Source of the DNA: a virus
Length of the DNA: 24,846 bases
Virus genome (UHGV): UHGV-1599541
Reading direction: 5' to 3' (one strand)
Every line of letters begins with the position of its first letter. The stretch's first letter is position 1. This document shows, in pieces, positions 4,573-16,579 of the stretch. The position numbers and the translations under genes were made by a program. Below the pieces are notes generated by a model, which saw nothing but the letters and a program-made list of their open reading frames with translations, was not told the DNA's origin and ran no database searches.

Positions 4573-5163
<591 letters not shown>

Positions 5164-5219
5164 TTAACAGATTCTACGAGTTGTCATTTGTGACTGTATG
5201 CTCGCAATCGTAGTGATTA

Positions 5220-5759
5220 CTACCACCAACTGCTAGCTTTCTTCTCTCTGGCTTTTCCTTCGCTTTGCAGTAAATCTTTACTTCCTGTAGAAATATTTCT
5301 ATTTGCATCAGCCTCAGACTGAATTACATCTGTCTTAGCTGCTCTCTCCTTCAACTCCTGCTCTATAAAATCGTTTTCTCGCTGGACACGAGCCGCTTTT
5401 GCTTGCAGTTCGAGTTTCATGCTTTCGAGTTGCAGCTTGCGAAGCTCATCCTCATAAGCTTGATCTCGTTTCTTGTCATTTGCTAGCTCGGCTTCTCGTT
5501 TCGCTCTACGTTCATTTTCTGCAGCAACGCGCTGTTTTTCGCGTGCAGCAGCGGCAGATGCTGCTTTTTCTCTTCTAACACGTTCAGCTTGTGCTTGTTG
5601 GCGAATAAGTTCTTTTCTGGCATCCTCAGCTTGCTGCTCTTTAGCTCGCCCTTCATTTTCCGCTTGAGCAATAGCAGCAATTTGACTTTGCAACGAGTTA
5701 GCCAAGGCAGTGCCTGCACTAAACGTAGAAAAGATTAGAAATAAAATAATTTTATTCAT
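5220..5759 (-). CDS. Secreted charged coiled-coil protein (179 aa) with cleavable signal peptide; candidate superinfection-exclusion (Sim-like) factor
   Basis: N-terminus MNKIILFLIFSTFSAGTALA then NSLQ (Ala-x-Ala cleavage site); remainder is A/E/R/K/Q-rich with heptad-like charge pattern (e.g. QAQAERVRREKAASAAAAREKQRVAAENERRAKREAELA). 3-bp spacing to upstream lipoprotein gene. Confidence 0.6.
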   Translation of the reverse strand: MNKIILFLIFSTFSAGTALANSLQSQIAAIAQAENEGRAKEQQAEDARKELIRQQAQAERVRREKAASAAAAREKQRVAAENERRAKREAELANDKKRDQAYEDELRKLQLESMKLELQAKAARVQRENDFIEQELKERAAKTDVIQSEADANRNISTGSKDLLQSEGKAREKKASSWW

Positions 5760-5762
5760 AAA

Positions 5763-6284
5763 TTATTTCTTTTCTGGACAAGTAGCATTTGGCTGAATTC
5801 GGGTTTCATTATCTTTAGTTGAAATGAGCACAGCAAGCCCTGTTGTAAACTGGCATGCTTTACCAACCTGAGTAGAAGTAAACACCTTAGTGCCTTCTTT
5901 ATAAGTCAGTGAAACCCCCTCAACAATTGTTTTATCACTAACCAAAGAACCAGCTGCTGCACCAAGAGCTGCGCCACCAGTACCACCAGCTACAGCACCC
6001 AAAGTCGATGTACCTTTAACATTATAACCGGCGACCCCACCAGCAACAGCCCCCAGTACCGCACCAAATGTCTGTGCTGCTTCTTTATTAGCTTTATTGT
6101 CAACTTTTACTTTAGCTGGAAGCACAGAAATAATATTGACAGTCTTTGTTTCCTGCTTCGAATTCAATTGAGCGGTATCATAAACATCGGCTGCATAATC
6201 AGCACCGTTTGATTGGCAACCAGAAAGAAGGAATGCAGAAACAACCAGAGAGCACAAAACAGATTTTTTAGACATAAGAATCAT
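5763..6284 (-). CDS. SlyB/Pcp-like glycine-zipper outer-membrane lipoprotein (173 aa)
   Basis: Lipobox LLSGC after a hydrophobic leader; Gly/Ala zipper GAVLGAVAGGVAGYNVKGTSTLGAVAGGTGGAALGAAAGS; C-terminal GVSLTYKEG..VFTSTQVG resembles the SlyB C-terminus. Start may be Met4 (MSKKS...). Confidence 0.7.
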   Translation of the reverse strand: MILMSKKSVLCSLVVSAFLLSGCQSNGADYAADVYDTAQLNSKQETKTVNIISVLPAKVKVDNKANKEAAQTFGAVLGAVAGGVAGYNVKGTSTLGAVAGGTGGAALGAAAGSLVSDKTIVEGVSLTYKEGTKVFTSTQVGKACQFTTGLAVLISTKDNETRIQPNATCPEKK

Positions 6285-6566
6285 CCAAGAAAAACAAAAA
6301 ACGGCGAGAAGTTACCACGAGAACGGAAAGCAAACAAGAATACTCCTATTGACTTATATCAATTAATCAACTTTTTATAAGCTATCCCTAACTTATTGGG
6401 TATAGCTAAAGAGTCAGAGACAAGTTCACCACCTGCATTATTTCTTAAGTTAATAGTTTACTGCTAACTTAATTTATGTATCGACTATTGATATCCATCT
6501 TAAAGTTACAATATCCCTCTGTATTATTTTTAATCACAAATAATATTTTCTTTTGTATGAGATTTG

Positions 6567-6583
6567 CCTGCTCTAATAAATTT
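6567..6583 (+). promoter_or_regulatory. C1 repressor operator-like 17-mer (Op51-like) upstream of c4/icd/ant
   Basis: CCTGCTCTAATAAATTT matches the asymmetric P1 C1 operator consensus ATTGCTCTAATAAATTT at 15/17; near-identical copies at 8231-8247 and 22930-22946. Confidence 0.6.
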
Positions 6584-6769
6584 GTATTTTTAAGTCGAAA
6601 ATGCTATCTTTTCGCTTCATATTGACCTTTTAATCGTTCAGGCTTATAGTTCCGCCGTCGTAGCAAATTCTACGACCGGGTTTAGCAGCCTGAATACTCA
6701 TGCGGACAACCGCAGATATCCGATATTGCGGTATTTTTGTGTCCGTAAACCACGTTACGCCCAAATTAT

Positions 6770-6846
6770 GGTGGGGCGTGATGGGGAGGCTTCGGCCTGC
6801 TGGTTTCATGAGTACCAGTCTGCTAACCCCGTCACGTCCTGCCACC
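6770..6846 (+). ncRNA. c4: c4-type antisense repressor RNA (boundaries approximate)
   Basis: Stem 6800-6804/6814-6818 with 9-nt loop TTCATGAGT (6805-6813) complementary to ACTCATGAG at 6879-6887, which covers the icd SD. Adjacent CTGCTAA (6820-6826) is complementary to GTTTAGCAGC, present upstream (6680-6689) and downstream (6848-6857). No long ORF on this strand; a GGC-TTCG-GCC tetraloop hairpin lies at 6788-6797. Confidence 0.5.
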
Positions 6847-6896
6847 CGTTTAGCAGCGGGTAGCAGGTTGTTAATTCAACTCATGAGGCCGTAACT

Positions 6897-7118
6897 ATGG
6901 TTAATGCCAATCCTTGCGCACGCCCAGAATTCATCTGGCGTTTCTATTCCTGTAAAAAACACCACTATCACTTCGTTATCGCAGCAACTGAAGACGAAGC
7001 ACGCTCTCAATTGCCTGATGGCCCCTGCATTTTTACTGCCCGTTTTTCTACTAACTCGCGCAATTCACTTAGTTACTGGAACCTCCCCTTCTCTGCCGAC
7101 GCTCAGGAGGGTTTATGA
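6897..7118 (+). CDS. icd: Icd-like small protein (73 aa), translationally coupled to ant
   Basis: ORF track; SD GAGG 6885-6888; stop overlaps the ant ATG (ATGA at 7115-7118); position between c4 and ant matches the immI layout. Confidence 0.65.
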   Translation: MVNANPCARPEFIWRFYSCKKHHYHFVIAATEDEARSQLPDGPCIFTARFSTNSRNSLSYWNLPFSADAQEGL

Positions 7119-8152
7119 AAAAACCTCTCGTCACCCGGAATGAAATAGCCGAAGCGATCGCCCTGCATACTGCCTGTATGCCGACACGGGAGATCCCCGG
7201 CGCAATTGCCAACTATTTCATGATAACCAGACGTTTTTATACCCGAACAGATAAGGCTGTGATCAACAGGCTACTGATAGCCGAGATCAGGGATTATTTG
7301 ATTGAACAAGGACGTCTACGTTACGCAACGGTGGCAGCAGAAATGAGAAAGGAGGCACATAGAATGACCGGTAATAATTTAAATGTTGAAAAACCAGCAC
7401 CTGTTGCTTCAGCTACGCCAGCACCAGCCGTGAATATCATCCCCAACACCGGAGACACAATCGACAGCCTGACACTGTTAAAGATGGTCAATGAAGCGCG
7501 TAAGTTATGTGGGGAACCAGAGGTTCGGAACAACAAATTCATCGAAAAAATACTCGATGAGCTTGATGGTGAGCACTACACAAAAAGTGTAGTGGAAAAA
7601 ATGAACAAAACATCAATGCTTGTCATAACCATGACTTTCAAACAAGCCCTGCGAGTCGCCGCGCGCGAGTCAAAAGCGGTCCGCCGTTCGCTGATCGACA
7701 AACTGGAAGAATTACAGCAGGCAAACTCACCTACCCCATCGATCCCCCAGACATTACCAGAAGCCCTACGCCTGGCTGCCGAGTTAGCAGAACAGAAAAT
7801 GCAGTTGGAACAACAGCTGGTGGCCGCAGCCCCTAAAGTCGATTTTGCCGACCGGGTATCAGTGGCCAATGGAATCCTGATCGGGAACTTTGCAAAGGTC
7901 GTTGGACTTAAGCAAAACGCCCTTTTCTCATGGTTGCGCCAGAACGGCATTCTCATGGCTTTTGGTGCGCGCAAAAACGTACCGCGCCAACAGTACATCA
8001 ACGCCGGGTATTTCACGGTGAAAGAAGTGGTACTGGATGATGAAAATGGCTACCAGATACGGCTGACGCCCCAATTAACGGGTAAAGGCCAGCAGTGGTT
8101 AACTCGCAAGCTACTTGATGCTGGTTTGTTAAAACCAGTAGCAATAGGTTAA
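7115..8152 (+). CDS. ant: Antirepressor Ant1 (345 aa) with C-terminal KilA-C/ANT domain; nested in-frame Ant2 start at 7364
   Basis: SD CAGGAGGG before ATG 7115. Internal in-frame ATG at 7364 is preceded by AAAGGAGG (7348-7355). C-terminal 125 aa share about 65 percent identity with the KilA C-terminus. Confidence 0.8.
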   Translation: MKKPLVTRNEIAEAIALHTACMPTREIPGAIANYFMITRRFYTRTDKAVINRLLIAEIRDYLIEQGRLRYATVAAEMRKEAHRMTGNNLNVEKPAPVASATPAPAVNIIPNTGDTIDSLTLLKMVNEARKLCGEPEVRNNKFIEKILDELDGEHYTKSVVEKMNKTSMLVITMTFKQALRVAARESKAVRRSLIDKLEELQQANSPTPSIPQTLPEALRLAAELAEQKMQLEQQLVAAAPKVDFADRVSVANGILIGNFAKVVGLKQNALFSWLRQNGILMAFGARKNVPRQQYINAGYFTVKEVVLDDENGYQIRLTPQLTGKGQQWLTRKLLDAGLLKPVAIG

Positions 8153-8160
8153 CAAAAGAA

Positions 8161-8190
8161 AAAAACCTGCCAGCAAACTGGCAGGTTTCT
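8161..8190 (+). terminator. Rho-independent terminator after ant
   Basis: A-run, stem ACCTGCCAG / CTGGCAGGT with loop CAAA, then TTTCT. Confidence 0.6.
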
Positions 8191-8230
8191 GAGCAGATCG
8201 ACCAACCCGATCTGGATCGAGTTAGAAAAA

Positions 8231-8247
8231 TTTGCTCTAATAAATTT
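8231..8247 (+). promoter_or_regulatory. C1 operator-like 17-mer (Op53-like) upstream of kilA-repL
   Basis: TTTGCTCTAATAAATTT, 16/17 to the C1 operator consensus; about 70 bp upstream of the kilA ATG. Confidence 0.6.
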
Positions 8248-8316
8248 CGTTTTCTAAGTGCAAAGAATCACCATTTCGAGCTGGTGATTGAAGGTTGATG
8301 CAAATTTGGAGAAAAA

Positions 8317-9117
8317 ATGCAACAAACATTCAATGCGGATATGAATATATCAAACCTTCATCAAAATGTCGATCCTTCAACCACTCTGCCTGTTATTTGT
8401 GGTGTTGAAATTACGACCGACCGCGCTGGCCGTTACAACCTTAATGCTCTACACAGAGCGAGCGGACTCGGTGCCCATAAAGCGCCAGCTCAATGGCTAA
8501 GAACGCTGTCAGCCAAACAGCTCATCGAAGAGCTTGAAAAAGAAACTATGCAGAATTGCATAGTTTCGTTCGAAGGCCGTGGCGGCGGCACTTTTGCCCA
8601 TGAATTGCTCGCTGTGGAGTACGCAGGCTGGATTTCTCCCGCGTTTCGGCTGAAGGTAAACCAGACATTTATCGACTATCGAGCCGGAAGATTACAACCT
8701 GCTATTCTGCAGAGTCTCCCTGAAGCTCTCCGTTTGGCTGCCGACCTGGCAGAGCAAAAGCAACGGCTGGAGCAAAAAATGCTTATGGATGCACCTAAAG
8801 TCGAATTCGCCGAACGCGTTGCTACCGCCAGCGGGGTTCTGATCGGCAACTATGCCAAAGTGCTCGGCCTGGGCCAAAACTATCTCTTCACCTGGTTGCG
8901 TGATAACGGAATTCTGATCGCAACCGGTGAACGCAGGAACGTCCCCAAACAAGAATACATATCCCGTGGGTACTTCACCCTCAAAGAAACCGTGATCGAT
9001 ACAAGCAACGGAAGCAGGATTTCTTTCACGACTCGTATAACCGGCAAAGGTCAGCAGTGGCTAATGAAGCGATTGCTTGATGCTGGTGTGCTGGTACCTG
9101 TCGCAGCTACGCGCTAA
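8317..9117 (+). CDS. kilA: KilA (266 aa): KilA-N domain plus KilA-C/ANT domain
   Basis: ORF track; N-terminal VICGVEITTDRAGRYNLNALHRASGLG..KAPAQWLRT is KilA-N-like; C-terminal LPEALRLAADLAEQK...TGKGQQWLMKRLLDAGVL is paralogous to the Ant C-terminus. Confidence 0.8.
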   Translation: MQQTFNADMNISNLHQNVDPSTTLPVICGVEITTDRAGRYNLNALHRASGLGAHKAPAQWLRTLSAKQLIEELEKETMQNCIVSFEGRGGGTFAHELLAVEYAGWISPAFRLKVNQTFIDYRAGRLQPAILQSLPEALRLAADLAEQKQRLEQKMLMDAPKVEFAERVATASGVLIGNYAKVLGLGQNYLFTWLRDNGILIATGERRNVPKQEYISRGYFTLKETVIDTSNGSRISFTTRITGKGQQWLMKRLLDAGVLVPVAATR

Positions 9118-9146
9118 CAGACGTAGTAAGAACCACCAGCATTGTA

Positions 9147-9992
9147 ATGCTGGCTAAAGTCACTTTCCTGAGCTGTATAACGATGAGCGATTTTACTTTT
9201 TCTGGCTATGAATTAGCCTGCTTTGTAACACACTCCGGTCTATCCCGTAGTGCCGGGCATATCCTGTCGCAATGTGCAAATCTCGCGGCAACAACCAGTG
9301 AATACTTTATTCACAAGCCTCACCGCATGATCGCGGCAGAAACTGGTTATAGCCAATCAACCGTCGTTCGTGCATTCCGTGAAGCTGTAAACAAAGGAAT
9401 CCTGACGGTAGAGATTATTATCGGCGATCACCGTGAACGCTGCGCTAACCTGTACCGGTTTACACCATCCTTTTTAGCCTTCGCACAACAAGCCAAAAAT
9501 GCGCTGATTGAAAGCAAATTAAAGATCTCTTCAGCCGCAACCAAGGTTAAAGCTGTTCTCGCCAAGACATTGGCTTTATTTGATTTTTTATCCACACCCC
9601 CATGTCAAAATGATACCCCCTCCCCCTGTCAGGATGACGTGGCAATAAAGAATAAGAAGTCACAAATTAAAAAAACAAAAAGATCAGTTTCCGGCGGTGC
9701 CGGAACGACCAGCCTCAAAAAACTGACTTCATGGATCGCTGAGGCAAAAGCAAAGGCTGACAATCTGCGGTTATCCAAAAAACGCGCTCAAAAACATGAG
9801 TTCAAGCAGAAAGTAGAGGCAACAGCGCGGAAATATGCTTACCTGAAAAACAAGCATTCTCCTGATATTGGCGGGGTATCAAACTTCGATAATCTGCCGC
9901 ATTGCATGACGGTAAACGAAGCTCTTAATGCGGTTTTAGCCAAAAATAAAGATAACGAACAATGGGGTATACCGGCAGGATTCAGAGGGTGA
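9147..9992 (+). CDS. repL: Lytic replicon initiator RepL-like protein (281 aa)
   Basis: ORF track; immediately downstream of kilA as in the P1 kilA-repL operon, and matching size. No independent motif recognised, so the call rests on synteny; start codon is uncertain because no clear SD is present. Confidence 0.55.
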   Translation: MLAKVTFLSCITMSDFTFSGYELACFVTHSGLSRSAGHILSQCANLAATTSEYFIHKPHRMIAAETGYSQSTVVRAFREAVNKGILTVEIIIGDHRERCANLYRFTPSFLAFAQQAKNALIESKLKISSAATKVKAVLAKTLALFDFLSTPPCQNDTPSPCQDDVAIKNKKSQIKKTKRSVSGGAGTTSLKKLTSWIAEAKAKADNLRLSKKRAQKHEFKQKVEATARKYAYLKNKHSPDIGGVSNFDNLPHCMTVNEALNAVLAKNKDNEQWGIPAGFRG

Positions 9993-10042
9993 TAGATTGC
10001 TCTAATCTGGAGTCACCTGGCGTTTTCAGTTTGAGGTCGGAG

Positions 10043-10288
10043 ATGCAATCTGATTTTTTACAGTTAGCGATCGCTTTTGCAGGATATGTTTGTATTGGCT
10101 TCTGTGTATACATGATCAGCCGAAAAATGCTTGTCGATATCGACCGCAAAGAACGAGCAGAGGAGACCTTAATATGGATTTTCTTTGGCGCGGTCTGGCC
10201 ATTAGGGGTCATGTTTGCTGCAACATTTCTTCTGATGTGGATATTCACCCTTCCAGGTGATTTCTATAGAAAAAAAGCCAGACATTGA
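10043..10288 (+). CDS. Small two-helix membrane protein (81 aa from internal ATG; rlfA-position gene)
   Basis: ORF 9962-10288 in the track; the ATG at 10043 has SD GAGG 10034-10037; two hydrophobic segments (LAIAFAGYVCIGFCVYMI and IWIFFGAVWPLGVMFAATFLLMWIF). Confidence 0.4.
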   Translation: MQSDFLQLAIAFAGYVCIGFCVYMISRKMLVDIDRKERAEETLIWIFFGAVWPLGVMFAATFLLMWIFTLPGDFYRKKARH

Positions 10289-10470
10289 TACAATCGTTGC
10301 GGGTGCTTGAGGCTATCTGCTTCAGGCATTACCCGAAAAGCAGATAGAAGAAAGCCCCAGATAACATTACGCGTCCTGCAAGACGCTTAACATTAATCTG
10401 AGGCCATATCTATGCTTAGCATACGTAGATTAACCCTCTCCCATTTTAAGGAGCAAGGAATTTTTTACTG

Positions 10471-11103
10471 CTATGCCGCATTTCCAATTATGGATTCAGC
10501 GACCAGAACAACCCCATGCTTACTTCGATCTGGGTGTTCACTCCATATCTCGGATTCAGGAATACTTACCCCGTCATAGCAAACACGTTCGCCGTCAAAC
10601 GGGTAATACTGAGCGGCATCGGTGTCGAGGATAAACACTTTTAGCTCGGAAGAGCGACGGGCGATGTGTTGCCAAAGAGCTTTTCCACCTTCGTATTGCT
10701 CATTATCACTGAGCAAAACAACACCAGCCTTTGAGGCTACGGTTTCGTAAACAAAAGTAGCTAAACCGACATCCCGGACAGTTCCATCAACCACGATACC
10801 TTCAATCTGGGCAACATCGCTATCCTCCCAGAACTTCCTTACCAGTACGCCTTCAAGCTGCGGGCGACGTTGAAGTTCAAGAGTAGCGACAACCTTATGC
10901 CGCATATCACCATCGATAACAGAAGGCGCAGCCTCTATTACAGCTGCAAATGGGGTTTTGGAATCCCATATAACCTGGTAAAGCACACCCTGGATGGTAA
11001 CTCCGTCCAGGATCGAAAATCGACGAGCGACAGTACCCGGGGAGTACGACATTGGAATCACAGCCATTTTAGAGTCCCCCTTTAACAGTACAGGCACAAA
11101 CAT
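10471..11103 (-). CDS. Hypothetical morphogenesis-operon protein (210 aa)
   Basis: ORF track; last gene of the minus-strand operon; the real start may be the internal Met (MAVIPMS...). Confidence 0.5.
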   Translation of the reverse strand: MFVPVLLKGDSKMAVIPMSYSPGTVARRFSILDGVTIQGVLYQVIWDSKTPFAAVIEAAPSVIDGDMRHKVVATLELQRRPQLEGVLVRKFWEDSDVAQIEGIVVDGTVRDVGLATFVYETVASKAGVVLLSDNEQYEGGKALWQHIARRSSELKVFILDTDAAQYYPFDGERVCYDGVSIPESEIWSEHPDRSKHGVVLVAESIIGNAA

Positions 11104-11195
11104 CTACCTCAATAATTGTAGTTTATTAGAACATTAATAATCTAACATAAAACTCCAGACAATGTTATCGATGCATGTTTATATAAAATAGTTAT

Positions 11196-11220
11196 AAAAA
11201 AAGCTCCCGAAGGAGCTTTA
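11196..11220 (-). terminator. Rho-independent terminator (hairpin flanked by A and T runs)
   Basis: AAAAA-AAGCTCC-CGAA-GGAGCTT-TAAAA; on the minus strand the hairpin is followed by a U-run. Confidence 0.6.
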
Positions 11221-11238
11221 AAATACAAGGGATGACTC

Positions 11239-11748
11239 TTAATCCCACTCAATCCAGTTGTAGACGATACGAAGTGACGGGCGCACAGCGGCAGTCACAT
11301 CTTCGGTACTAAAGTCGATTGCATCACTGTAGATTTTGCAGTCCAACATTTCAATTGTTGTAGCAGCTTTTGTCACAGCGTTAACCCCGGAAGATTTGGA
11401 TTCAGGGGTAGCAGCCATCGTGATATCAACATAGTCCTTCGCCGCAATGCGATCCTTAATGAACTGAAGAATATCGCCTTCGATAGTCTCCACGCACTGG
11501 ACCTGGACTTCCCCGGAGTTTCGAATTGGACCGTGCTGGTTGAACTTCACACCATTCGGACCATAGTCCTCCACATCCTCGCGGGTCATTTCAGGGATTT
11601 GCGACGTGCGAACCAGTACGCTGATATCTTCATGGCCTGCAAAAGTGAGCTGGAATTCAGAAGATACCAGTCGTTCGCCTTTGGCCGCGTTGGCAGTATA
11701 GCGGCCCTTAATAAATTTACGGTTTCCCTTAGTGTTATTGTGCCCCAT
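11239..11748 (-). CDS. Putative tail tube/baseplate structural protein (169 aa)
   Basis: ORF track; SD AAGGA 7 nt upstream; size and context inside the tail operon. No catalytic motif seen. Confidence 0.5.
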   Translation of the reverse strand: MGHNNTKGNRKFIKGRYTANAAKGERLVSSEFQLTFAGHEDISVLVRTSQIPEMTREDVEDYGPNGVKFNQHGPIRNSGEVQVQCVETIEGDILQFIKDRIAAKDYVDITMAATPESKSSGVNAVTKAATTIEMLDCKIYSDAIDFSTEDVTAAVRPSLRIVYNWIEWD

Positions 11749-11759
11749 ATAAAATCCTT

Positions 11760-12341
11760 TTACTGGAACGCCCGAACAATATCGGAGCTGTTATATATCG
11801 AAGAACCGGTCAACTGGAGGTTGACGGTGTTTTTCAGGAAATATCCATTACTGTCCCTTGGCGCATCGAGATCAAAACTTAAGTCCTGGATAGCGACATC
11901 GGTGATGTTGATCCGGCGACCAATGTTTAGCGTCACACGCTCCGGGATTCGACCACCAATACTGGCATCTTTAAGTTCCGGGCTAATCATGGCTGTCAAC
12001 GCGGCGATAGCGCCTGAAACTTCAATGAATGGATTGTTCAAAGCAATGAAAGTTACGGGCAGCGTGAACGTCGGCGGTGTCCCCCCTTCCCAAACCATTA
12101 AGCTGTTCCAACGGGCAACCGACGTTGTTTCAGTACCTACTTGCACAAAACCCCCCAGAGCACCAGAAACAGATCCCATGGACATACCGGTAAACGGCGC
12201 TTCCCAATTCTGGGCCATGTTCATTGCCGCCCCCTGGCTGATATATCCGGTAACCTGATACTGAGAGTTCGTTAAAGTAACTTTCAGATATGGCGATACA
12301 CCGTCAGCCTGGCTGTAAACCCCATAAGCTATAGGAGCCAT
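11760..12341 (-). CDS. Putative tail structural protein (193 aa)
   Basis: ORF track; preceded by an SD-hairpin-AUG arrangement (12339-12379). Confidence 0.5.
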   Translation of the reverse strand: MAPIAYGVYSQADGVSPYLKVTLTNSQYQVTGYISQGAAMNMAQNWEAPFTGMSMGSVSGALGGFVQVGTETTSVARWNSLMVWEGGTPPTFTLPVTFIALNNPFIEVSGAIAALTAMISPELKDASIGGRIPERVTLNIGRRINITDVAIQDLSFDLDAPRDSNGYFLKNTVNLQLTGSSIYNSSDIVRAFQ

Positions 12342-12376
12342 TCAAGTTAAAGGCCGGAGTTCCCCGGCCTCCTCCT

Positions 12377-13192
12377 TTAGCCAAGGCGCTTACGGCGCAG
12401 TTTCATTGACTTTTTGCGGGCAAGTTTTGCCGCGCCAGTCTGGGCTTTTCGACGCGCTTTTTTCAGCGCCGATTTTTGAGCCGCAGTCAGACGTTTTTTA
12501 CGCAGGCGTTTACGGATGAGTTTGATCTCACCGTTACGAACAACCTTCTTAAATGCTTCAGTCAGCATTTCATCAGAAGTGCCAGCAACAACAAACGCCG
12601 CTTCCAGTTCGTCACGGTCGTCGCTATCTAAACCAGCGATAGAGGCACCAACATCAGCAGCTGCGTCGTCGTCTTCATCGTCAGCCAGTGCTTCGATCAG
12701 GTCATCATCTACACCGCATGCTGCGAGGAAGTCAGCAACATTTGCCCATGCTTCGTTATAGGCATCGTCCTGTTCTTCTGTAACTTCGGAGTCGTCGTCA
12801 TCAGAGATACCAGCGATAGCCTGAACGAAACCATCAAGGGAGTCGAAAGTCAGATCACCGCTATCAGCCCAGGCGAAAACGGCGTCGGCCGCATCACTCA
12901 ACGCATTCTGCATAGCACTTCGATTTGCAGCTTCCAGAATCATCTGGTGCGCCTGTTCAACGGTCCATTCTTTACCTTCTTTCCCTTCCAGGATTTGCCC
13001 AGGAGCCTGGTCAGGTGGAACGTTCTCGTTAATCTGTGCCGCCGGTTCCGGATTATTATTAATAACCGGATCTGTTGGCGGTTCGGCGCTTGCCCGGGCA
13101 GACTCCATCAGCTGTACAGGATCAGAGTTCAAAGCGAAACGGGACAGTCCATTCCCCAAAAATGCCCCGGATTGAAAAAAGTTTTTGCTCAT
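12377..13192 (-). CDS. Highly acidic protein with polybasic C-terminal tail (271 aa); position of P1 gene 21
   Basis: ORF track; SD AAGGGA; Asp/Glu-rich tracts (SDDDDSEVTEEQDD, ADDEDDDAAADV, DSDDRDELE) followed by a C-terminal about 45 aa that are K/R-rich (KLIRKRLRKKRLTAAQKSALKKARRKAQTGAAKLARKKSMKLRRKRLG). Confidence 0.6.
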   Translation of the reverse strand: MSKNFFQSGAFLGNGLSRFALNSDPVQLMESARASAEPPTDPVINNNPEPAAQINENVPPDQAPGQILEGKEGKEWTVEQAHQMILEAANRSAMQNALSDAADAVFAWADSGDLTFDSLDGFVQAIAGISDDDDSEVTEEQDDAYNEAWANVADFLAACGVDDDLIEALADDEDDDAAADVGASIAGLDSDDRDELEAAFVVAGTSDEMLTEAFKKVVRNGEIKLIRKRLRKKRLTAAQKSALKKARRKAQTGAAKLARKKSMKLRRKRLG

Positions 13193-13201
13193 TGTATTCC
13201 C

Positions 13202-14791
13202 TTACTTAATAAGCAGCGGTACGCCCTGGATACGACGGGCTACGCCAGTCGGGCAGCAGGCCCAGACTACTTCCCATTTATCGAATTCCGCCTGCGTAAC
13301 TTTCAGCACATACGGTTCTGTACCGTCAGCATCAGGATCACGAGGAGCCACCAGAGCGCCGGAGGCGACAAAGCGATCTAAAAGTTTGGTCATCCCTTTA
13401 GTCAGGCCAGCCGCAGTAATACCGTCCGGGCTATGCTTCATCTGGCGGGCTAACTGGACAAAGAAACGGCTGATTGCATTCATCAGGGATGGGACGTGCT
13501 GGAAGTGCAGATAGTTATCCTGCGTGCAGCAAGTTAAAGCATCGTCGATGATCATCTGGCCAGAGGTGCCAACAGATACTTTATTGAGACGGCCCTTGAC
13601 CATTGCTTCTTCGTCCGGGGTATCTTCCGGATACAGCGGTTGAATTGACGCACGAGCAATGACGGCACGTTCTTCACCAGCCGGTGAGTAATGCCAACCG
13701 CCGACATCAGAGTTTTTCTTGACGCCACGAGCTTTCGCCGCGTACGCCACGCCAGACAGACCAAAGACCACACGGGATTGGGTCCATTTGTCTTTGCAGG
13801 AGAACGGGTAGTGATAGACAGAACAGCTTACATAATCGGTACCAAGTAAACCGGTATCTTCAACAGCAGACAGCGCTTCCGTGTACGTCAATGTCGGTTT
13901 AACATCAAAGAAGCCATCAATCAGGCGATCAGAACAGATATTACCTAACGCAGTGATCGCCGCATTGTCATAGCAGCCCAGGCCAAGAACAGCGGTGTAC
14001 ATGTACGGGGCATTGTTCAGCACTTTCACCGCACGCAGGTACGCAGCAGTTGAGATTTTCGATTGATCACCGTTGGTACCACCGGTGAACGCCAACGATT
14101 TTTTGTTTGTTACTTTCGCTGTCGAAATCAGCTCTTCATTAACAACCGCGCGCAGATATTTAGAACGGGCTTCCAGAGCCGTAGGCAGATAACACAAGCG
14201 GCCCATGTCATCTTTCGCTTCTTCCGCCAAAGACACAGTGTGTGTCTCCAGGGTCGTTACCACACCGAGCGAAGTCGTCTGGGTCAGTTTTAAGAGGAAG
14301 CGTTCATTGCCCGCACTGTCCGCTGTTGCCGTTTCGATGGTTAACTCACGGGTAGGTGAAATACACGGATCACCATCATCAACGTAGATAGCAAAGGCTT
14401 CGCCGCTATCAAGTTCAATTTCAGAACCGTATGGCAACGCACTGTAAGCCGGTTCGCCTGATTCATCGAACATAATAATCGGGAACTTCGCATCATCCGG
14501 AACAGCACGGACAACATAACCAGACGTTTGCTGAATAGCTTCGTACACATGACGAATTGGTTCGAACTGTGAGCCGGAAGACGGTTTCAGCGGTTCGCCG
14601 AGAACATCTTCGTAATTGGACTCAGTAACAGCGAGAACAGTAAACGGCTTGCCACGCGCAAATACGCCAATACCAGCCCACAAGCTGCTATTTAATGCAA
14701 CACCGGTAGATAACGTCGCATCGGCATTGATCTGGCTAACCGCGACGCCGGATGCATTACCTAATGACTGTTGAATTGAATATTGAGACAT
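13202..14791 (-). CDS. Putative contractile tail sheath protein (529 aa)
   Basis: ORF track; size about 57 kDa and position next to small tail proteins; assignment by size and synteny with the P1 23-22-21 operon as I recall it, not by a verified motif. Confidence 0.5.
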   Translation of the reverse strand: MSQYSIQQSLGNASGVAVSQINADATLSTGVALNSSLWAGIGVFARGKPFTVLAVTESNYEDVLGEPLKPSSGSQFEPIRHVYEAIQQTSGYVVRAVPDDAKFPIIMFDESGEPAYSALPYGSEIELDSGEAFAIYVDDGDPCISPTRELTIETATADSAGNERFLLKLTQTTSLGVVTTLETHTVSLAEEAKDDMGRLCYLPTALEARSKYLRAVVNEELISTAKVTNKKSLAFTGGTNGDQSKISTAAYLRAVKVLNNAPYMYTAVLGLGCYDNAAITALGNICSDRLIDGFFDVKPTLTYTEALSAVEDTGLLGTDYVSCSVYHYPFSCKDKWTQSRVVFGLSGVAYAAKARGVKKNSDVGGWHYSPAGEERAVIARASIQPLYPEDTPDEEAMVKGRLNKVSVGTSGQMIIDDALTCCTQDNYLHFQHVPSLMNAISRFFVQLARQMKHSPDGITAAGLTKGMTKLLDRFVASGALVAPRDPDADGTEPYVLKVTQAEFDKWEVVWACCPTGVARRIQGVPLLIK

Positions 14792-14851
14792 AACTTTCCC
14801 TGTTATGCGCCCCGCACGGGGGCGCTATGTTAAACGGAGAACTTCCCCTGA

Positions 14852-16579
14852 TTACTCAGAGTCACCGGCATCAATCGTGTTACCGGTCAGGAAGTTAATC
14901 CCGCCATTTTTGGCCATAGTCAGAGTTACACGGGTGAAGTAGTCAGCGCCGTTACGTGGGTGCATATCGTTGATAGCCGACCCCCACAGAGTGGTTCGGT
15001 TGACCAGTGCCGGGGTGGTTGGATGCTGGAATGGGATAGCTGGAACTGCATCACCAGTCACAAAACCCGCTTTGCCCGGATTTTCATCACGGACGTAGCA
15101 CAGCACATCCATCGGGCTGAACTGAATACCTTCGGCGGTCAGGTTCGTGCAAATACCTTCTGGTACTTCGAACACTTTGACGTTACCGAACAGAGTGCCA
15201 ATGTAGTGAACGTATGGTGTCTGGATATAATCTTCTGCTGGCTGGAAGAAATCCTTCGGCAACTGTTTGAAGAAAGATGCCGCATCAGCACCGGCATACA
15301 TACCCATCGCACCAGAAGATCGAACGCGCTCAATAATGCCGCGATATACCGTCTGGAATTTGCCGCGAATGATCGTTGCCCACACATCAAAGGACTGGTT
15401 AACCGGCAGCGCAATGTCAAAGGAGTCGGTAGCCAGAGTTCGCCAGATCATGATACGAAGACGAAGCATATCCTGTTCATGGGACAGGTATTCCTTCAGG
15501 GTGCGGAACTGTAGGGAACCGAGGTCAAGACCAAATTCACGCTGTGCTTCATACGCCGCCTGTACCGTGTGCTCAGCCGCGATGACGAACTGGCTTGGGA
15601 ACAGGGTGTAACTCTTCATTTCGTGGTTGATAAGTGGGATCAGCTCAGGAGCGGCTTCAATATTGATCTCCGCCTCAATGGCGATCTCTGTACCTTTATC
15701 AGGCGCTTTGGAGAACGACAGGGCAATCTGTCCAATGTTGTAGTTCAGAGAGCAGGTAACAGTGATTTGTTCGCCAGCTTTGTTATTGAATGTGTGAAGC
15801 AGAGTACCGGAGCCGTTATCAACAACAGACTTAATACGGTTAACGTAGATATTTGTACGGCCTTTGCGGATCGGGACATTCTGGCCTTCAAAGTCTTCCA
15901 TCTTGAAGGTTGCGGTTTTGCTGGTGCCATCGGAACTTGCCACCAGCACATAGCGGCGGCGCAGTTGGCTGTACACACCAACAGATTGCATATCCAGAAC
16001 ATCACCCGAAGCATAAGAACCAAAAGAGGAACCCGCTACGTTAAAGATTTCATAGATTTCGGACTTGTCACGCGTAACCGGAATGAAGGTACACGCATCA
16101 GCGGTAGCTGCCCCCAACTGAACAGGCAGGATCATCGCGAGGAATAAAGGCAGACGCATAACACCGTCAGAAACGCTCATCATCTCTGCTGCGACGGATT
16201 CCAGCATCGCTTTATTAGTGGCATCCATGCTATTGCGGGTGGACTCAATCAGGCAGTTTTCCAGCGTCTGGTGGCAGGAGGCCAGAATTTCCGGACGCGG
16301 CATAGATTTATGTGCTGCGGCGTAGTCAGCCAGTGCACTTGCCCACGCTGTAGCGATTTGAGCGGTGGCATTATCAGAGATACCCGCAAAAATTGGGTCT
16401 TTACGTGCAGCTTCAAGGATAGATGCGGCACGCGCGGCATCATCTTTAATGAATTGGTTATCAGTACCGAACTGCGCAGTGCTTGCCCAGCCAAGCACAG
16501 CTTTAGAGCGTTTTGCGATATCTGCAATACGATTCTGGTATTCGCGTAAGTTACTCAATTTACTCTTCCTTAAACACAA
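14852..16579 (-). CDS. Putative major head protein precursor (about 570 aa); start codon uncertain
   Basis: ORF track starts at a TTG (16579); a better-placed TTG at 16558-16556 follows SD AAGGAAG by 6 nt. Size about 62 kDa and position upstream of sheath fit the P1 gene 23 slot. Confidence 0.5.
   Translation of the reverse strand: MCLRKSKLSNLREYQNRIADIAKRSKAVLGWASTAQFGTDNQFIKDDAARAASILEAARKDPIFAGISDNATAQIATAWASALADYAAAHKSMPRPEILASCHQTLENCLIESTRNSMDATNKAMLESVAAEMMSVSDGVMRLPLFLAMILPVQLGAATADACTFIPVTRDKSEIYEIFNVAGSSFGSYASGDVLDMQSVGVYSQLRRRYVLVASSDGTSKTATFKMEDFEGQNVPIRKGRTNIYVNRIKSVVDNGSGTLLHTFNNKAGEQITVTCSLNYNIGQIALSFSKAPDKGTEIAIEAEINIEAAPELIPLINHEMKSYTLFPSQFVIAAEHTVQAAYEAQREFGLDLGSLQFRTLKEYLSHEQDMLRLRIMIWRTLATDSFDIALPVNQSFDVWATIIRGKFQTVYRGIIERVRSSGAMGMYAGADAASFFKQLPKDFFQPAEDYIQTPYVHYIGTLFGNVKVFEVPEGICTNLTAEGIQFSPMDVLCYVRDENPGKAGFVTGDAVPAIPFQHPTTPALVNRTTLWGSAINDMHPRNGADYFTRVTLTMAKNGGINFLTGNTIDAGDSE

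Follow-up and report, generated by a model that had tools for sequence, protein, structure and literature searches.

The product of gene 21 in the window (the whole analysed stretch of 24,846 nucleotides, virus genome UHGV-1599541) carries an acidic body and a polybasic C-terminus, and the question raised by this locus is whether such a protein belongs to the phage tail or to the head. The window belongs to a phage-plasmid of the P1 family, with 98% identity to RCS47 and SJ46 and 97.7% identity to P1 across positions 11000-15000. The open reading frame (ORF) of gene 21 is on the minus strand, runs from ATG to stop with a good Shine-Dalgarno sequence, and encodes 271 residues, of which 268 are identical to gp21 of phage P1. 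The product matches the PHROG 1053 profile (E = 1.5e-98, residues 10-270), as do 30 of 30 aligned members of the gp21 family; PHROG 1053 is of 'unknown function', and the GenBank note on P1 gene 21 reads 'baseplate or tail tube'. The answer favoured here, held at about even confidence, is that gp21 would be a precursor inside the head, cut by the prohead protease Pro to release a 6.8-kDa polybasic peptide. That gp21 is a protease substrate and head-internal appears quite probable from its predicted cut sites. That the released peptide is the functional entity and DNA-associated falls somewhat short of an even chance, charge and slow evolution being the only pointers to DNA binding.

The charge of gp21 is strongly segregated. 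Residues 1-214 include 49 Asp/Glu and 7 Lys/Arg (net -42), with residues 131-214 being 37% acidic, and residues 224-271 include 23 Lys/Arg and no acidic residue (net +23), a segregation reached by 0 of 20,000 residue shuffles. The acidic body and basic C-terminal tail described in the original prediction are thus borne out; the wording that the tail is almost entirely Lys, Arg and Ala is overstated, as these residues make up 65% of the last 48 (K13, R10, A8 and L7, the rest being Ser, Thr, Gln, Gly and Met). The AlphaFold2 model (mean predicted local distance difference test score, pLDDT, of 72) has four parts: a disordered stretch (residues 1-70), an acidic all-alpha domain (78-203), a short beta-hairpin and a single long basic helix (237-270). 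Structure prediction and homology search, both proposed at the outset as checks, return an all-alpha fold with no match to a known family or structure. No Pfam, NCBIfam or Protein Data Bank (PDB) relative of gp21 is found by profile and structure searches, and no structural relative is found for the acidic domain. An anti-restriction DNA mimic of the Ocr/ArdA type, one of the roles suggested earlier, is not upheld, as no likeness to known DNA mimics, in fold or in sequence, is found. The suggestion of a DNA-mimic-like or chaperone-like acidic surface fares better in so far as such a surface would be compatible with an intramolecular charge-masking pro-region. Three candidate relatives were set aside: a weak echo of phrog_1346 (a 127-residue 'tail protein' family, E ~0.01) and an echo of a 'head scaffolding' PHROG (E = 0.35), each reproduced by no family member, and a likeness of the basic segment to ribosomal protein bS20 or bS21, which finds no profile support.

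The gp21 family is large, with 85 homologs found by a word-indexed search and 598 cluster representatives by an exhaustive profile search. Almost all members are 200-290 residues long with the basic segment at the extreme C-terminus, and this polybasic tail is the best conserved part of the PHROG 1053 family. Its consensus is E-x-x-K-V-V-R-x-G-K-V ... (L/M)(S/T)-x-x-Q-(K/R)-x-A-L-K-K-A-R-x-K-(A/S)-(H/N)-(T/S)-x-x-A-x-x-x-R-x-K-S-M-x-x-R-x-x-x-G-(L/M); in the window copy, the beta-hairpin KVVRNGEIK precedes the helix. Over 223 copies of the segment the mean charge per residue is +0.36, versus -0.26 for the 100 residues upstream; thus, the bipartite architecture is common to the family and not peculiar to the window sequence. 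Identity between copies is 53%, versus 22% for shuffled partners, so that conservation is positional and not compositional. The basic tail is therefore a discrete, positionally conserved module of ~59 residues, not a low-complexity appendage. Among 19 phages, the median identity to the window copy is 62% for the module, compared to 34% for the major capsid protein, 41% for the sheath, 44% for the tube and 36% for the acidic domain. The module is the slowest-evolving part of the operon, which argues for an invariant ligand such as DNA. Two Bacillus phages, HSE3 and SP-15, carry it at an internal position of the protein, as do metagenomic lineages whose protease is a Peptidase_S77 and whose capsid protein is of the Gp23 type; three family proteins have it twice. 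As a side observation on T4-superfamily metagenomic lineages (loci L118 8001-8780, L119 8001-8801 and L120 8001-8777; proteins P0211, P0188 and P0218), paired CxxC motifs (zinc-ribbon-like) flank the module there and some proteins have two tandem modules, which suggests further domain architectures in the family.

Motifs for a prohead protease are concentrated in gp21. In P1 the capsid protein is cut at AMLE120↓S121 (the arrow marks the cut), with the mature N-terminus SVAAEM established by Edman sequencing, and DarA is a known substrate of Pro. DarA has exactly one motif, LLE68↓A69, its putative cut site, right where its density in cryo-electron microscopy (cryo-EM) begins, and Hdf, which is reported to be unprocessed, has none. 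Five L/I-x-E↓S/A/G motifs that resemble the capsid AMLE↓S and DarA LLE↓A sites are found in gp21; the strict form of the motif is observed four times versus 0.18 expected from self-shuffles (0 of 20000). The 23 proteins of the window hold 11 motifs, of which 7 fall within gp21 or the propeptide that is removed from the capsid protein gp23, and the same motif scan finds none in the sheath, tube, PmgG, Tub or PmgB. The sites also bracket the module across the family: phi-x-[ED]↓[SAGT] precedes 184 of 223 modules, phi-x-E↓[SG] stands right after the module in 6/6 proteins that extend well beyond it, and the bracketing holds in the lineages with Peptidase_S77 and a Gp23-type capsid protein. The residue before the module, E212 in gp21, is nearly invariant and is replaced by Asp, Ala or Ser in phages with Asp or Ala at the capsid site; this near-invariance and covariation argue that E212 is also a cut site.

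Motifs of this kind occur in other proteins as well. Pro itself has seven, of which three are kept among the 120 homologs listed, and in P1 (locus L117, 6015-7034) three conserved autoprocessing-type sites are in its C-terminal half. Besides the mapped cut, the gp23 propeptide includes ILE↓A (ORF residues 54-57) and LIE↓S (residues 110-113) and, judged by these two extra motifs, is probably cut into three pieces. Single motifs are noted in the P1 portal Prt (L117, 4313-6022; QILE↓SVF near the C-terminus, residue 557 of 569), in P1 DdrB (L117, 11543-14530; GLFE↓S at 439) and in the window adaptor PmgC (4573-5139; LLE↓S at residues 24-27, near the N-terminus); the portal, DdrB and PmgC are possible additional substrates of Pro.

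The sites of gp21 covary with those of the capsid protein. Loci were taken from a species-dereplicated genome scan (27 loci, plus four others, of which 23 were scored), as a scan of viral contigs gave only near-identical copies of P1 and was not used. When the capsid-site hexamer is compared to the N-terminal region of the gp21-like protein of its own phage, the mean score is 16.6, versus 14.4 +/- 0.6 for shuffled pairs, and 10 of 20000 shuffles reach it. The best match is at residues ~23-65 of the gp21-like protein in 22/23 loci; in L110 the automatic best match is not the N-terminal motif, though MITE↓S is present there. Sheath, PmgG-like and tube-like controls from the same loci score 9-12 with no excess for own pairs. 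The last residue before the cut (the P1 position, not to be confused with the phage) is concordant between the capsid and gp21-like proteins. In most phages this residue is Glu at both, with MMLE at all three sites in L115. Asp is found in the V. owensii-type locus L108 (capsid AILD↓S; gp21-like QILD↓D and LVLD↓A) and in Xanthomonas Rb1 (capsid IAMD↓S; gp21-like VTLD↓S and PALD↓A). Ala is found in Pseudoalteromonas (L103; capsid MMLA↓S, gp21-like LMLA↓S and MMLA↓A) and in two Vibrio loci (L004 and L112), where the capsid and N-terminal sites have Ala and the pre-module site Ser. On the capsid tree the A-type and D-type each arise in at least two separate places, giving at least four independent switches from Glu to Ala or Asp. 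The protease of Xanthomonas Rb1 has no E-type motif and instead has D-type motifs at the positions of the conserved autoprocessing sites of P1 Pro; this protease-site switch was checked in the D-type Rb1 only, as Pro of the A-type phages is not among the 120 homologs listed. Of the several roles offered in the original prediction, that of an internal protein is partly supported by this covariation.

The patterns computed are that the motifs are present, enriched, bracket the module and covary with the capsid and protease sites; the cleavage itself, the prohead location, and the fate and role of the peptide are what is proposed from them. In the proposed pathway, gp21 would be expressed, like the capsid protein, from the late operon and would enter the prohead, where Pro would cut it at L/I/M-x-E↓S/A/G sites (E30↓S31, E69↓G70, E87↓A88, E167↓A168 and E212↓A213). 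Cleavage would take off a 30-residue pre-sequence, reduce the acidic region (net -42) to short acidic pieces and free the C-terminal 59-residue peptide A213-G271 (6.8 kDa, net +25), the charge of which the acidic region would mask before cleavage. A role of the pre-sequence in targeting is speculative, and its sequence does not evidently resemble the N-terminus of DarB, DarA, DdrB or Hdf. The mature polybasic peptide would most likely remain associated with the packaged DNA, acting as a counter-ion or internal peptide. Predicted cut sites flank the module, it is sometimes duplicated, and it evolves far slower than any phage protein that might bind it; for these reasons a released peptide is favoured as the functional product, with packaged DNA as its most likely ligand. 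As the module is apparently cut off the acidic body, the intact bipartite protein is probably only a precursor.

Several points weigh against this pathway. All support for it is computational, with cleavage and presence in the prohead predicted from sequence. The sites at E87 and E167 are inside confidently predicted helices and may be inaccessible, P1 Pro is only weakly linked to the S77 protease of the T4 type (E = 0.008 in BLASTP), and the Ala or Ser at the P1 position of the A-type phages is odd for a Glu-specific protease. In P1-like phages gene 21 is located between the sheath and tube genes, and classical amber mutants of 'cistron 21' are said to have been classed as baseplate or tube defective. 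Finally, the shuffle statistics ignore phylogeny. The motif pattern could thus reflect shared ancestry and chance, with gp21 being a cytoplasmic nucleic-acid-binding or regulatory protein that has an autoinhibitory acidic domain and acts late in the infection, e.g., on DNA or RNA of the host or the phage; the bipartite charge does resemble that of autoinhibited nucleic-acid binders. Such a protein is quite improbable here, as the P1-position residue has changed independently on at least four occasions, in step across as many as three gp21 sites and the protease, control proteins from the same loci show no signal, sites flank the module in unrelated lineages, and the gene is always in a structural late operon.

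The amber phenotype and the gene position bear more directly on the tail. The 'baseplate or tail tube' annotation stems from the amber mutants, and gp21 could accordingly help to assemble the tail without entering the virion, e.g., as a chaperone of tube, sheath or tape measure, with the motifs being irrelevant. The lumen of the tube is negatively charged and could be bound by the basic helix. In phage lambda, gpG and gpGT are small acidic non-virion proteins encoded among the tail genes, directly upstream of the tape measure, with gpGT made by a -1 frameshift; gp21 is absent from mature virions, as chaperones of this type are. By contrast, PmgB holds the slot upstream of the tape measure in the window, as it does in the unsplit operon of Vibrio, and no same-strand ORF of at least 50 residues overlaps gene 21, as a -1 frameshift would need. 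In T4-superfamily lineages, moreover, the module gene follows a gp13-like neck gene, not the sheath gene. A chaperone also gives no reason for motifs that no other tail protein of the window has and that have followed the capsid and protease sites in at least four independent switches. A tail assembly role is, therefore, improbable.

The tail phenotype itself has a plausible explanation in misassignment of cistron 21 or in polarity on pmgG and bplB. The transcription unit runs 23 (major capsid protein), 22 (sheath), 21, pmgG and bplB (tube), with gene 21 third and its start 10 nt beyond the sheath gene; the description of the unit as a tail operon is correct for sheath, tube and pmgG, but the major capsid protein is also in it. 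Misassignment or polarity is made plausible by the count of five ORFs in this late operon versus three classical cistrons, by the two essential tube genes directly downstream of gene 21, and by pmgG, where no Shine-Dalgarno-like sequence lies within ~15 nt of the ATG (gap 12342-12376), unlike genes 22, 21 and bplB. Translation of pmgG may thus need upstream translation, in which case nonsense mutations in gene 21 would be polar on an essential tail gene. The essentiality of gene 21 in CRISPR interference is likewise confounded by polarity, as its authors state.

That gp21 is a structural protein of the tube or baseplate is favoured only by the name 'tail tube protein Gp21' in RCS47, SJ46 and UniRef. 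In the P1 cryo-EM studies of 2023 and 2026, the tube is BplB, the initiator Tub and the linker PmgG, all baseplate, neck and head densities are given to other proteins, and gp21 is never mentioned. In P1 virions analyzed with liquid chromatography coupled to tandem mass spectrometry (LC-MS/MS; trypsin, two-peptide cutoff, 27 proteins), BplB, PmgG, gp22 and gp23 are present and gp21 is absent; the proteome supplement has no list of sub-threshold peptides. Full-length gp21 is predicted to yield 4-5 good tryptic peptides and is, therefore, no abundant virion protein in intact form. Neither Pfam nor PHROG nor PDB connects gp21 to a tube family (there is no Phage_T4_gp19-type match), and its model, all-alpha plus disorder, includes no tube beta-sandwich. 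Thus, gp21 is not supported as a tail structural protein, and this extremely improbable assignment is refuted for practical purposes. The earlier judgment that gp21 is atypical for a standard tail component holds on the same grounds (no tail homology, absence from the virion tail and an all-alpha predicted fold), and homology to a standard tail component such as a tail terminator, named at the outset as a refutation, is not found.

The virion data are compatible with gp21 as either the source of an internal peptide or a scaffold. The predicted mature products would, once E87 is cut, yield at most 1-2 usable tryptic peptides, and the basic peptide essentially none, such that a retained peptide would escape LC-MS/MS. 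In the main rival explanation, a pure scaffold role, gp21 would be a trans-acting scaffold or core protein, with the basic module anchored to the shell or portal and the fragments made by Pro all leaving the head. The same protease-site evidence would apply, P1 has no identified separate scaffold (and is said to have no such core protein), the helical body is acidic and the C-terminus basic, the operon is shared with the capsid protein in every lineage examined, and gp21 is missing from virions. The acidic domain, proposed here to be a charge-masking pro-region or scaffold-like body, is however predicted to be a compact bundle, not an elongated coiled coil, and scaffold-like regions are already at hand in the gp23 propeptide and in Pro, in its C-terminal half. 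The module evolves far slower than the capsid protein it would bind (62% versus 34% identity), and its excision at the C-terminal side where sequence follows, together with its duplication in some precursors, is hard to reconcile with a simple anchor. Mutants of cistron 21 also reportedly still make heads, if cistron 21 is this ORF. A scaffold that leaves no peptide behind is, on this evidence, unlikely.

The closest known systems to the favoured precursor would be the core and internal proteins of T4 and, by analogy only, pVII and Mu of adenovirus. In T4, core and internal proteins of the prohead (IPI-III, Alt, gp67, gp68 and gp22) are cut by the T4 gp21 protease at L/I-x-E sites; the core proteins are fragmented into small peptides, while the basic internal proteins stay with the DNA. 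Similarly to these, P1 gp21 is encoded with head genes and would lose a short N-terminal segment at an L/I-x-E site; sites of the gp21 family obey the same rule, and several lineages have the Peptidase_S77 protease and a Gp23-type capsid protein. By contrast, no sequence or fold similarity to gp21 is detected, the T4 internal proteins do not combine an acidic pro-region with an excised polybasic module, and the gp21 module is far more conserved than the internal proteins are among T4-like phages. The T4 proteins belong to the prohead, where gp21 is predicted to be. In adenovirus, pVII and pX (Mu) are cut by the viral protease inside the capsid to form basic DNA-condensing peptides. The likeness is a maturation protease that frees a small basic peptide within the particle, with the pX peptide excised on both sides; the virus lineage and protease are unrelated, there is no homology, and the precursors have no large acidic masking domain, such that the analogy is purely functional. 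The scaffolding protein gp8 of P22 shares with gp21 an acidic helical body, a basic C-terminal element (coat-binding in gp8 and possibly so in gp21), absence from mature virions and a reliance on electrostatics. Unlike the proposed precursor, gp8 is not proteolysed but exits intact and is recycled, and its C-terminus is a helix-turn-helix, whereas that of gp21 is a hairpin and one long helix between predicted cut sites; no homology and no profile or fold match is found between the two.

Extended to the family, the precursor reading is tentative. PHROG 1053 may be a widespread, unrecognised class of phage 'pro-peptides' targeted to the prohead, in which an acidic domain would neutralise one or two copies of a conserved ~59-residue polycationic peptide, to be excised by the maturation protease and kept with the genome. 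Such peptides would be to the phage what Mu/VII is to adenovirus, or would resemble protamines, would escape tryptic proteomics and symmetric cryo-EM, and would possibly be co-injected into the host.

Table 1. Coordinates of gene 21, its parts and predicted cut sites, and of the neighbouring late genes in the window.
Feature	Position (nt)	Strand	Remarks
Gene 21, 271 residues + stop	12377..13192	minus	P1 gp21 homolog; PHROG 1053 'unknown function'
gp21 residues 1-30, N-terminal pre-sequence	13103..13192	minus	Predicted disordered; family consensus M-x4-F-x2-G-x-F-L-x2-G-L; proposed to be removed at site 1
gp21 residues 31-69, variable Pro-rich spacer			Ends in site 2
gp21 residues 78-203, acidic all-alpha domain	12584..12961	minus	Six predicted helices, pLDDT ~90
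gp21 residues 213-271, conserved polybasic module	12380..12556	minus	59 residues, 6840 Da, 15 Lys + 11 Arg, net +25; proposed mature product
Site 1, L28-M29-E30↓S31	13100..13111	minus	Predicted; sole conserved N-terminal element (family form phi-phi-E-S); covaries with capsid maturation site
Site 2, I67-L68-E69↓G70	12983..12994	minus	Predicted
Site 3, I85-L86-E87↓A88	12929..12940	minus	Predicted; family motif phi-phi-L-E-A-[AV]
Site 4, L165-I166-E167↓A168	12689..12700	minus	Predicted
Site 5, L210-T211-E212↓A213	12554..12565	minus	Predicted; adjoins basic module
Gene 23, major capsid protein	14852..16579	minus	First gene of late operon
gp23 propeptide, ORF residues 1-127	16199-16579	minus	Removed at maturation
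gp23 cut site M-L-E127↓S128	16196-16207	minus	Equivalent to P1 E120↓S121
Gene 22, tail sheath	13202..14791	minus	No cut-site motif
pmgG, tube-linking baseplate protein	11760..12341	minus	Essential
bplB, major tail tube protein	11239..11748	minus

The surrounding locus has features of its own. The gp23 ORF of the window runs seven codons upstream (to a TTG) of the start annotated in P1. In relatives from Vibrio and Mailhella the structural operon is unsplit (23, x, 22, 21, pmgG, bplB, pmgC, tub, pmgB and sit). In the window, as in P1, a block with orf179, a methyltransferase-like ORF, ant, kilA, repL and others stands between bplB and pmgC (window 5200-11100 compared to L004 3233-13838), and looks like an insertion that split the ancestral structural operon. 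Similarity to P1 begins only at about window position 11197, while RCS47 and SJ46 match throughout; where P1 has rlfA, rlfB and pmgF, the window has a 210-residue ORF (10471-11103, minus strand; phrog_7522, with a weak sub-threshold GNAT match) and a 108-residue ORF (9962-10288, plus strand). Misannotation is spreading in P1-like records: Pro is named 'tail fiber protein' (RefSeq, PHROG 1801), gp21 is the 'tail tube protein' of the databases cited above, PmgG, PmgC and PmgB are named 'head morphogenesis' but are a tube-linker, an adaptor and a putative tail chaperone, respectively, and PHROG 1014, the P1 capsid protein, is labelled 'unknown function'.

P1 is a classic model phage whose particle is now modelled almost completely, with gene 21 left without an assigned place or role. 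If gp21 is a processed head precursor, the 20-year-old annotation, spread as 'tail tube protein', would be wrong and the P1 head would have an unrecognised component, of a kind (small polybasic capsid peptides) that tryptic proteomics and icosahedral or helical cryo-EM would systematically miss. A testable function would also be provided for several hundred sequence clusters found in phage-plasmids related to P1 and in myophages of the T4 superfamily, with Gram-negative as well as Gram-positive hosts. The covariation of sites, in turn, lets the specificity of the protease (Glu, Asp or Ala at the P1 position) be read, and its substrates be predicted, from genomes alone.

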